IMG/VR virus record: IMGVR_UViG_3300020430_000008
Span: 64,001 to 128,000 of that record
Direction: 5' to 3' (one strand)
Source: a virus
Length of the DNA: 64,000 nucleotides
Positions 47,691 through 58,561 of this stretch are shown one piece after another. A program made the position numbers and the translations under genes. Position 1 is the stretch's first letter. Every line of letters begins with the position of its first letter. The notes beneath the pieces were generated by a model. It searched no databases. It saw nothing but the letters and a program-made list of their open reading frames with translations, and was not told the origin of the DNA.

Positions 47691-47787
47691 TGGCTGGAGG
47701 GGTAGGAGTCGAACCTACAAGATGCGCTTTCGCGTACTCACCGCCCGAGAAACAGTCGGGTGCGTCTGCCAATTTCGCCACCCCCCA
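47691..47787 (-). tRNA. Atypical 97-nt tRNA, anticodon GTT (Asn) on a long-variable-arm body
   Basis: Acceptor TGGGGGG/CCCTCCA, G73, encoded CCA; D-arm GCGAAATTGGCAGACGC; anticodon arm CCCGA-CTGTTTC-TCGGG; 25-nt variable arm; T-arm GTAGG-TTCGACT-CCTAC. Confidence 0.8.
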
Positions 47788-56677: not shown

Positions 56678-57256
56678 TTACTCGGCGACAGGTGGCGGCT
56701 CATTATTTTGAGCAGGGTCAAAAGATGGACCCTCAGCGATAGTAGTCAACTCGATATCAAAGTTAAGAGACTTGCCTGCCAGTGGATGGTTCAAGTCGAG
56801 AGTAACATCGGTATCGGTAAACGATGCAATAGTAGCAAAGATGGGGCGACCATCTTCGGTTGCACCTTGGCAGGGAGCACCTTCAACAAAAACATATCCA
56901 TCAGGAAATTGGTTTCGCTGTACCGTGCTAAATGCCTCTGGGTTTGTGGGACCATATGCTTCCTCGGGTGAGAGAGTAATGGACTTTGTTTGTCCAGCCT
57001 TCATTCCGATAAGCGCATTCTCGAAACCCTTGATAAGTTGACCAGAGCCAACTTGAACTTTGATAGTCTCATTTCGATCATACGAACTATCGAACAGAGT
57101 TCCATCCGTGAACGTTCCCTTGTAATGCAACTCGACAAAGTTCCCCTCAGTCACAAGTGGTGTCTTCTTACGAGTTGTTTTCTTCTTGGCTGCGGTCTTC
57201 TTCGCAGTCGTCTTTTTTGCAGTTGATTTAGCTGCAGTCTTTTTGGTTGTTGCCAT
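56678..57256 (-). CDS. FKBP-type PPIase (SlyD/FkpB-like) with K/T/A-rich N-terminal extension
   Basis: V.LHYKG...G.LFDSS, G.GQLI.GFE.AL.GM, PEEAYG, LDLNHPLAGK.L.F.IE; start ATG 57256 after GGAG. Confidence 0.93.
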   Translation of the reverse strand: MATTKKTAAKSTAKKTTAKKTAAKKKTTRKKTPLVTEGNFVELHYKGTFTDGTLFDSSYDRNETIKVQVGSGQLIKGFENALIGMKAGQTKSITLSPEEAYGPTNPEAFSTVQRNQFPDGYVFVEGAPCQGATEDGRPIFATIASFTDTDVTLDLNHPLAGKSLNFDIELTTIAEGPSFDPAQNNEPPPVAE

Positions 57257-57310
57257 TTGTTGTATATACTCCAATATTGGTTTTGCGCAATGCGACTTTT
57301 TATCTTCTCT

Positions 57311-57353: not shown

Positions 57354-57687
57354 TGGTGGAGATGGCGGGAGTCGAACCCGCGTCCAAGATAAATCCAATT
57401 CTAGTCATTCACAAGTTTAGTCAGTTTCTATCAGCCCCTGACAAAGTAGATGGCTATAAGATATCGCTTACCATCCTGTTGCGATAAATGATTTGATTTT
57501 TACAACTGCTCTGTTGTTTTGACCAGATTGGAAAGAAGGCTCTGGTCAGCCTCCCGATTAAGCCGCTAGGCGTGCAGAATCGAAGTGATTGTTGTTATTT
57601 GCAACTATTGTTTTTGAACTGTTAAGGTCGTATCTAACCTACTTGCACTATTCCTCTTTATTACCCTGTCGAATCCTAGTCATCCCC
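57354..57687 (-). ncRNA. ssrA: tmRNA, tag ANNNNHFDSARLAA
   Basis: 5' GGGGATG..GGATTCGAC; 3' GGGTTCGACTCCCGCCATCTCCACCA; G3-U70 pair; tag ORF 57602-57558 begins GCA and ends LAA-stop. Confidence 0.96.
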
Positions 57688-57903
57688 TTTCTTCTTTCTT
57701 TTTTTCTTGGTGATCACGCCAAGTGGCTGACCGCTTTCTCCGTCCAGCCAAATGACGATCTCATCCTTACTTTCTTCTTTTACCGCATTGAGATACTGTA
57801 TCTCTTTCTTTGCCTTCTTGAGCGCTGCTGATTCGCTGGAGTGACTACTAAGTAGTTCTCCTTGAATATAGTGCCCATCCCATTTCCAGACTTTCCAACT
57901 CAT
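57676..57903 (-). CDS. Hypothetical protein
   Basis: 75 aa; stop lies inside the tmRNA 5' end. Confidence 0.55.
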   Translation of the reverse strand: MSWKVWKWDGHYIQGELLSSHSSESAALKKAKKEIQYLNAVKEESKDEIVIWLDGESGQPLGVITKKKRKKKGDD

Positions 57904-57931
57904 TTATCTTACTCATGATACCCTATCAAAA

Positions 57932-58124
57932 CTCTATAAAAGATTGCTAGCACTCCTTGCGTCTAGCTTGCCAGCCTATCTTCAACTACCATCCCTTCTT
58001 AACTGTCCTCAATGTCATATGAGGCTTCATGCTCTCCGCATGGTCTGGATTCTACTCTGAGATGGTTAGGTTCGTTTTAGGCATTGAACCGACCCTTTGT
58101 TTAGTTGTTAAACCCTTTATAGAG
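57932..58124 (-). ncRNA. Candidate structured non-coding RNA (~193 nt)
   Basis: Closed by a 14-bp stem CTCTATAAAGGGTT/AATCTTTTATAGAG; several internal hairpins; no credible minus-strand ORF. Confidence 0.6.
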
Positions 58125-58144
58125 CCATGTAGCTTAATAGGCTC

Positions 58145-58489
58145 TCATCTACTATCCTCATTTATAAAAAAAGATTCTGTGTTATATTGCTTAAGGTTTT
58201 TATTCAACTCTGATACTGTGATTCCTAAGAATCTTGCTGCTTCTTTTTTTGAGCGCGTGGCTGACAATGCATATTTAAGAACAGCATCCCTAGTAATCTC
58301 TGGTAGTGATTTCCATATGGGAAAACCATAGTATTTACCTCTGAGAGATCTAGTACAAAGTTCAAGCTTGAGTGCTATTACTTCTTCTAGTGTTAAAGAA
58401 TTAATCATGACTTCAAATTCGTCACTAATCTTCTTGTCTTTTTGTAGTTTCTTTGATATACTGTAGTATAAATTCTTTCCAGTTTTCAT
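58145..58489 (-). CDS. Fis-like helix-turn-helix protein
   Basis: C-terminal YALSATRSKKEAARFLGITVSELNKNLKQY matches the Fis HTH pattern; start ATG 58489. Confidence 0.7.
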   Translation of the reverse strand: MKTGKNLYYSISKKLQKDKKISDEFEVMINSLTLEEVIALKLELCTRSLRGKYYGFPIWKSLPEITRDAVLKYALSATRSKKEAARFLGITVSELNKNLKQYNTESFFINEDSR

Positions 58490-58532: not shown

Positions 58533-58561
58533 AATATACACTTTTTGGAAGGTCTTGTCAA
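58533..58561 (-). promoter_or_regulatory. Sigma70-type promoter
   Basis: TTGACA-17 nt-TATATT. Confidence 0.78.

Follow-up and report, generated by a model that had tools for sequence, protein, structure and literature searches.

We describe a structured RNA of 197 nt that lies on the minus strand of an uncultured phage genome, behind a gene for a Fis-like protein and upstream of a tmRNA gene, and which is almost certainly a real, conserved and uncatalogued RNA. The stretch of DNA analysed here (the window, 64,000 nucleotides in length) comes from a viral contig of 141 kb in IMG/VR that is 78% complete and carries baseplate-wedge and PhoH genes. The nearest cultured relatives of this contig share only ~32% identity with it, and the T-arm of the tmRNA was the only match when the region was searched against cultured phages with megablast and blastn. 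The element belongs to an RNA family that has a fold of its own, is new with respect to Rfam 15, and is known so far only from dozens of uncultured marine phages of the myovirus type. A 2023 survey of IMG/VR listed 8,495 unnamed candidate structured RNAs (PMC10690425), and the family may be listed there without a name.

Fold of the element

The element occupies 57930..58126 (minus strand), from the 5' strand to the 3' strand of its closing stem P1. The minimum free energy of a 193-nt stretch of it was -55.6 kcal/mol, against -41.0 ± 3.9 kcal/mol for dinucleotide shuffles of the same sequence (n = 200; z = -3.78), none of which folded as well. In P1, the 5' strand GGCUCUAUAAAGGGUU (58111..58126) pairs with the 3' strand AAUCUUUUAUAGAGUU (57930..57945). 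The closing stem of 14 bp described in a first-pass annotation of the sequence is present there, and two further outer wobble pairs (G-U/U-G) extend it, so that 58126-58111 faces 57945-57930. The 3' strand of P1 directly abuts the P4 hairpin and is followed by UUUUGAU.

Within P1, an inner helix CAACUA/UAGUUG joins 58107-58102 to 57988-57983 (minus strand). The P2 hairpin, GGUUC-AAUGCCUAAAAC-GAACC (58069..58090, minus strand), is closed by pairing of GGUUC at 58090-58086 with GAACC at 58073-58069, and its loop contains GCCUA (58078..58082), the 5' strand of a predicted pseudoknot. The complementary 3' strand, UAGGC (57974..57978), lies 100 nt downstream, with the conserved GUUGAAGA before it and UGGC after it. 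P2 and this strand are separated by a lineage-specific insertion of 77 nt (57989..58065), a CCAUC/GAUGG stem bearing two hairpins, at a variable strand where other members have 0-47 nt. The helices CAUGC-GGAGA-GCAUG and CCUCA/UGAGG are also present. P4 (57946..57967, minus strand) is the hairpin GCUAG-ACGCAAGGAGU-GCUAGC, with GCUAG/CUAGC pairing and a GNRA-like GCAA loop. All helices listed in the first-pass annotation were found in the sequence where it had placed them, in a fold that outperforms the shuffled controls.

Genomic surroundings in the window

The order on the minus strand is promoter, Fis-like gene, RNA, an open reading frame (ORF) of 75 aa, one-piece tmRNA and an FKBP gene. The promoter is of the sigma70 type (TTGACA-17-TATATT, 11/12 matches; 58533..58561) and is the sole one upstream of the RNA element within the window. 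The gene that it precedes (58145..58489, 114 aa), a conserved upstream neighbour of this type of RNA, encodes a Fis-like protein that matches Pfam HTH_8 with an E-value of 3.9e-4, below the curated cut-off. This protein has 163 relatives in IMG/VR, while a search of cultured phages returned zero; its AlphaFold model (pLDDT 61.8) was too poor for use. The tmRNA, with the tag ANNNNHFDSARLAA, is found at 57354..57687 (minus strand; RF00023, 127.6 bits). The genomic setting originally proposed for the element, behind a Fis-like gene under a sigma70 promoter and upstream of tmRNA, is confirmed.

The first-pass annotation was silent on the 75-aa ORF between the RNA and the tmRNA (57676..57903, minus strand), which is conserved. 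A search of related loci in IMG/VR with this ORF gave no relatives; homologues were later read directly in three of these loci (L031, L032 and L052), where the layout is as in the window. In all four cases the ORF, of 75-85 aa, has no stop before the tmRNA gene (window 57676-57903; L031:3015-3254; L032:2991-3236; L052:3581-3838), and its stop codon falls 12-41 nt inside the 5' end of the tmRNA (12 nt in the window). An RNase P cut at the tmRNA 5' end would thus leave the ORF message stopless, and such a message would be a natural substrate of the phage's own tmRNA.

Directly after the tmRNA, and with a promoter of its own (57339-57311), lies a gene for an FKBP-type peptidyl-prolyl isomerase (56678-57274, minus strand), whose N-terminal tail is lysine/alanine-rich and histone-H1-like; a homologue also follows the tmRNA in L031. 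Elsewhere in the window, ARAGORN called a tRNA-Asn(GUU) of 97 nt (47691-47787, minus strand) for which the Rfam tRNA model gave no match at its gathering threshold; it may contain an intron or insertion, or else be a false call.

Comparison with known RNA families

The element was compared with Rfam 15 (4227 models, including 6S, RNase P, SRP, riboswitches and self-cleaving ribozymes). Nothing matched over the element at gathering thresholds, nor at E<=10 when a 1.4-kb slice was searched; in 12 related loci nothing matched over the RNA at E<=1, and a compact member of the family gave nothing sensible at E<=10. Neither the glnA RNA (RF01739) nor the Downstream-peptide RNA (RF01704) matched the element or the compact member at E<=10, no match at E<=10 was obtained with the hammerhead, twister, twister-sister, pistol, hatchet or HDV-like models, and the element was called neither by ARAGORN nor by the Rfam tRNA and tmRNA models. 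The first-pass annotation had failed to assign the element to RNase P, SRP, 6S or a riboswitch, and the absence of any Rfam 15 match over it at E<=10 agrees with this. The comparison with Rfam that it had suggested, now carried out, matched no known family, and its proposal of a new class of non-coding RNA holds against Rfam 15, both for the element and for its clearer relatives.

A family of related RNAs behind Fis-like genes

Searches by sequence did not reach any relatives, with nhmmer returning nothing for the window element against 13 related loci, and no exact 20-mer of the element matching in IMG/VR. As the family is too diverged for such searches, synteny and reading by eye were used instead. 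Among the relatives of the Fis-like gene, many are followed by tmRNA after 37-54 nt, a space holding a promoter and a short leader, and others have a gap of 130-360 nt that folds with a long closing stem. Reading these longer gaps side by side revealed one common architecture. From 5' to 3' it consists of P1, a variable AU-rich joiner, P2, a variable strand (0-90 nt, often a hairpin), the sequence U-K-R-A-A-R-N, the strand GAGNC that pairs with the P2 loop, UAGC or UGGC, P4, and the 3' strand of P1, which begins 0-1 nt after P4. The consensus of P2 is NCUUC-AAUGNCUCUNNU-GAAGN, and that of the GNRA-like P4 loop is G[UC]GA[AG]NA. P1 ranges from 7 to 18 bp among members, the compact ones being ~105 nt long.

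We seeded a covariance model (R1) with ten compact members and rebuilt it from the R1 matches (R2); since MAFFT alone misaligned P1, this narrow seed followed by realignment to the covariance model was used in its place. R2 finds 43 plus-strand members behind the Fis-like gene in related IMG/VR phage contigs, the window element included. The window copy matches R2 at 57939-58117 over the full model (1-110), with a weak score of 23 bits (E 0.05-0.064 for 304-387 kb searched), and it was not reported by a whole-record model search of the IMG/VR genomes. The low score results from its insertion, which places 92 nt where other members hold 11-47 nt.

Because the score is marginal, membership of the window copy also rests on agreement motif by motif and on gene order. 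Its P2, GGUUC-AAUGCCUAAAAC-GAACC, shows the family loop pattern [ACU][AU]UG-N-CU[CA]N... closed by UUC/GAA. In the family, GNCUC of the loop pairs with GAGNC located after U-K-R-A-A-R-N and before U[AG]G[CU]; the window has this arrangement in GCCUA and GUUGAAGA-UAGGC-UGGC, a compensatory variant in which C:G is replaced by A:U at pair 5. Its P4 reads GCUAG..GCAA..CUAGC and is followed by AAUCUUUUAUAGAG, which pairs with the 5' end of the element. The copy also lies downstream of a Fis-like gene and upstream of tmRNA/tRNA, and the order of Fis-like gene, RNA, small ORF and tmRNA is identical in the window and in L031, L032 and L052.

Several motifs were set aside: a hammerhead-like CUGAUGA...GAAAC in L006 and L026 is a coincidence, as other members do not conserve it, and neither a small ORF starting from the loop AUG nor the interpretation of the pseudoknot 3' strand as a Shine-Dalgarno sequence plus AUG is conserved. 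One subgroup (L015, L043, L050 and L051) has a conserved joiner, GGUGCYAAACUAGAA, 5' of P2, together with an upstream UUCUAG. The palindromic CUAG of this subgroup might base-pair with the CUAG in the GAGUCUAGC junction, either as a second tertiary contact or in an alternative fold.

Covariation supports a pseudoknotted three-way junction

Covariation was assessed in an alignment (A8) of 44 rows, one of which is a reverse-strand artefact. Of the cells assigned to pairs in A8, 93.6% were able to pair, compared with 70.5 ± 0.9% when partners were shuffled (0 of 500 shuffles reached 93.6%), and pairing fell to 38-48% when partners were slid by 1-3 columns. Double-sided changes were seen in 20 of the 24 pairs. 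By helix, double changes occurred in all seven family pairs of P1, in four of five pairs of P2 (97.3% of cells paired) and in all six pairs of P4, counts that lean toward the model because the alignment was fitted to it. P1 helices were also found in sequences taken singly, by plain complementarity beside P4, and they differ considerably in sequence.

The pseudoknot was absent from the covariance model and covaries nevertheless. Its column pair 67/174 contains GC (18), AU (9), CG (5), UG (5) and UA (4), and two other positions show rare double changes, including the window's change from C:G to A:U. RNAalifold, run freely, picked out P1, the pseudoknot helix and P4. Covariation outside the model, together with the RNAalifold result, makes the pseudoknot the best-supported tertiary feature of the family. 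The pairing of the GCCUA loop with downstream UAGGC, proposed in the first-pass annotation from the window alone, therefore not only joins complementary strands but corresponds to a pseudoknot that covaries across 43 homologues, and the search for homologues and covariation that had been recommended there yielded compensatory changes across the same set.

As predicted from these alignments, the family is a three-way junction in which P1 joins the two ends, the loop of P2 is pseudoknotted, and P4 abuts P1. The P2 loop measures 12 nt and forms an H-type pseudoknot of 5-6 bp with a downstream purine-rich strand (..RAAR-GAGNC). Some 20 bases at the junction are near-invariant, and conserved single-stranded runs, located at the junction, are only 3-4 nt long. 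The element is a selected RNA structure, and is neither a coding region nor a repeat.

Distribution and genomic contexts

Most members have a promoter (TTGACA-N17-TAnnnT, 10-12 of 12 matches) 8-100 nt upstream. Five copies (the window, L032, L052, L037 and L059) are without a promoter directly ahead of the RNA and must therefore be read from the promoter of the Fis-like gene. In approximately 30 of the 43 members, 10-28 nt separate the end of the RNA from the first base of tRNA-Gly(UCC) or tmRNA, and in the remaining members one or two small genes intervene, encoding either a cytidylyltransferase or a protein of 75-85 aa as in the window; the compact members L062 and L085 precede the cytidylyltransferase gene. 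Where relatives have no copy of the RNA, tmRNA is driven directly by the same promoter. The 8 nt after P1 contain a mean of 3.5 U against a background of 2.2, with at least 5 U in 31% of members, and one subgroup has 7-20 consecutive U residues separating P1 from the tRNA. Across five otherwise near-identical contigs (L098, L110, L113, L114 and L115) the run between P1 and tRNA-Gly(UCC) varies from 7 to ~20 T, which could reflect a slippage-prone tract or an assembly artefact.

Copies were also found in other contexts. In G002, a complete genome of 186 kb, the gap between the Fis-like gene and tmRNA has no RNA, and a copy with an 18-bp P1 and the pseudoknot GGUUC/GAACC (L122:1501-1624, minus strand) sits between two unknown genes. 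G004 has a second copy (L123:1501-1625, plus strand; pseudoknot GAUUC/GAAUC) after a DUF2201 metallopeptidase gene, and G003 has a single copy with no Fis-like gene nearby. Given these copies in G002, G003 and G004, the RNA is an autonomous module that can occupy a leader, an intercistronic or a 3' position. It shows a preference for host-type promoters upstream and for fusion to genes processed by RNase P. The genome of the window itself, within its 78%-complete contig, has one copy.

The diverged copies L122 and L123 have the tail CUGGGG instead of CUAGC and a P1 of 15-18 bp, and adjoin two conserved genes of unknown function. A third candidate in G004 (L124, 18.8 bits) did not have the motif and was rejected, a type-2-specific pattern matched only G002 itself, and five RNA-less fragments (36-56% complete) held no copy elsewhere in their sequence. 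A scan of 185,579 prokaryote genomes (one per species) with a strict pattern gave six matches and no true member; the only one to score with R2, weakly at 21.8 bits, is missing the 3' strand of P2 and was regarded as a chance match.

Possible functions and alternative explanations

The explanation that we favour as a whole, and to which we give about an even chance, is that the family represents compact pseudoknotted non-coding RNA genes whose products would be stable and would act via the pseudoknot core. Slightly less assured is the specific mechanism, in which the RNA would be excised and act in trans. Early in infection, the RNA would be made within the tmRNA/tRNA precursor or, in the case of the window, on the transcript of the Fis-like gene, and RNase P would free it by cutting the 5' end of the downstream tRNA or tmRNA. 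The freed RNA would then survive with both ends locked in P1, the burial of both ends in this stem being the reason to expect stability. The conserved core of pseudoknot and junction would bind a protein or a small ligand and would not base-pair with targets; antisense targeting is unlikely because the conserved unpaired runs are short (3-4 nt) and located at the junction. P1, which is followed by a U-rich tract in about one third of members, could double as the stem of a terminator; a stand-alone RNA gene would be compatible with this, and so would a switch.

The promoter-proximal position also fits a cis-acting leader, the main rival, which we nonetheless consider unlikely. A riboswitch-like sensor of this kind would bind a metabolite or factor through its core, with the formation of P1 adjusting whether transcripts terminate, read through or are processed into the tmRNA, tRNA or small genes that follow. 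Consistent with this, the RNA immediately follows promoters and precedes a variable set of genes, it resembles small aptamers in its H-type pseudoknot, A-rich strand and ~20 near-invariant junction bases, 31% of members have the U-rich tail after P1, and a glutamine riboswitch has been reported beside the tmRNA of phage Melnitz (PMC9004378). However, many members meet tRNA-Gly after an AU spacer of 10-13 nt that holds neither a terminator nor a ribosome site, the genes downstream (tRNA-Gly, tmRNA, cytidylyltransferase, small ORFs) share no function, some copies lie between cistrons or at 3' ends, and none of the known riboswitch models, among them glnA and Downstream-peptide, gives a match. 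An expression platform combined with coherent regulated genes, as expected of riboswitches in general, was not found.

Three further readings appear considerably less probable. A new class of self-cleaving ribozyme, which might trim a precursor by removing, for example, a leader from tmRNA/tRNA or from the Fis-like mRNA, is improbable: the compact pseudoknotted junction, the small invariant core and the location in phage DNA would suit it, and the layout broadly resembles that of the pistol ribozyme, but self-cleaving ribozyme models do not match at E<=10, the closing helix here encloses the pseudoknotted hairpin, unlike in pistol, RNase P already explains the downstream cut, and no conserved candidate cleavage dinucleotide was identified. 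There is also a slim chance that the RNA is a tRNA-like mimic or decoy, in which P1 and P4 would stack coaxially (~13 bp, 7-nt loop) to resemble an acceptor/T-arm minihelix, so that RNase P or another tRNA-binding host factor such as a defence nuclease would recognise it. P4 does lie 0-1 nt from the 3' strand of P1, an arrangement like that of the T-arm and acceptor stem in tRNA, and the RNA resides in tRNA/tmRNA clusters; against this, it has no T-loop sequence, CCA, D arm or anticodon arm, it goes uncalled by ARAGORN and the Rfam tRNA/tmRNA models, and its P1 can be as short as 7 bp or as long as 18 bp. A small mobile element or MITE-like insertion, with P1 as its terminal inverted repeats and no function at the RNA level, could produce presence or absence in the same gap between the Fis-like gene and tmRNA among relatives, as well as the copies at other loci. 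We consider it scarcely credible, since covariation argues strongly against it: the supposed repeats differ between members yet remain complementary, and the internal helices and the pseudoknot covary. In addition, the genome of the window has a single copy, and no conserved flanking sequence was seen.

More tentatively, the RNA may represent a new functional class of phage RNA, either a new natural aptamer or ribozyme fold or an early-expressed decoy that captures a host factor for RNA processing, ribosome rescue or defence, which marine phages would deploy together with their own tmRNA and tRNAs.

Relation to known systems

The nearest precedent comes from phage T4, where the transcript of the tRNA cluster is the precursor of eight tRNAs and of the stable species I and II RNAs (PMC2330249). 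These are likewise small stable phage RNAs beside tRNA genes, co-transcribed with them and freed by processing (PMC2330249). The present family, which we set beside them by description, has its own H-type pseudoknot fold and belongs to distant, uncultured marine phages. A second comparison is offered by the marine myophage Melnitz, in which a glutamine riboswitch was reported next to the tmRNA (PMC9004378). This glnA RNA (RF01739) is likewise structured, pseudoknot-forming and physically linked to a phage tmRNA (PMC9004378), but its model does not match the family at E<=10, its consensus differs, and the family is located at the opposite flank of the tmRNA, with links to tRNA-Gly that are just as frequent.

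Aptamers of the preQ1-I/II and SAM-II/V classes share with the family the pairing of a hairpin loop with a downstream strand, an A-rich connecting strand, tolerance of hairpin insertions and a purine-rich, Shine-Dalgarno-like 3' strand. The family differs from them in adding P1 and P4, and hence a three-way junction, in having no Rfam match, and in being without a consistent expression platform or regulated gene. The pistol ribozyme (RF02679), which is phage-associated, also has a hairpin loop pseudoknotted to a downstream strand and then another hairpin; its helices are nested differently from those of the family, in which the conserved pistol core is absent and the pistol model finds no match. 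In E. coli, 3'ETS-leuZ is a functional RNA carved from a tRNA precursor by tRNA-processing enzymes. Spacer sRNAs of this sort act as base-pairing sponges and have little structure, in contrast to the present family, with its high degree of structure and its lack of any long conserved single-stranded run.

RNAs with covariation of this kind and a conserved pseudoknot core are often riboswitches, ribozymes or protein-binding machines. The family belongs to abundant uncultured ocean phages and is tied to their tmRNA and tRNA genes, and the purpose of such phage-borne genes is still debated. With a consensus, a covariance model and 40-odd examples now in hand, it is directly testable. Should it turn out to be merely one unnamed catalogue motif among thousands, and its role one of housekeeping, an unexplained gap would have gained a good annotation.

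Cross-hits of a permuted tmRNA model

In some relatives, the model RF04321 runs from the 3' part of the RNA into the 5' half of the true tmRNA, and in the window it covers 57558-57766, outside the element. We considered and rejected a permuted tmRNA piece at these positions: the one-piece tmRNA is complete and the supposed acceptor strand is not complementary, so the match is a cross-hit. Standard one-piece phage tmRNAs with their upstream sequence (L088:2918-3126 and others) score 64.5 bits with RF04321, against a gathering threshold of 47, and cross-hits of this kind could mislead the annotation of two-piece tmRNAs in phages.
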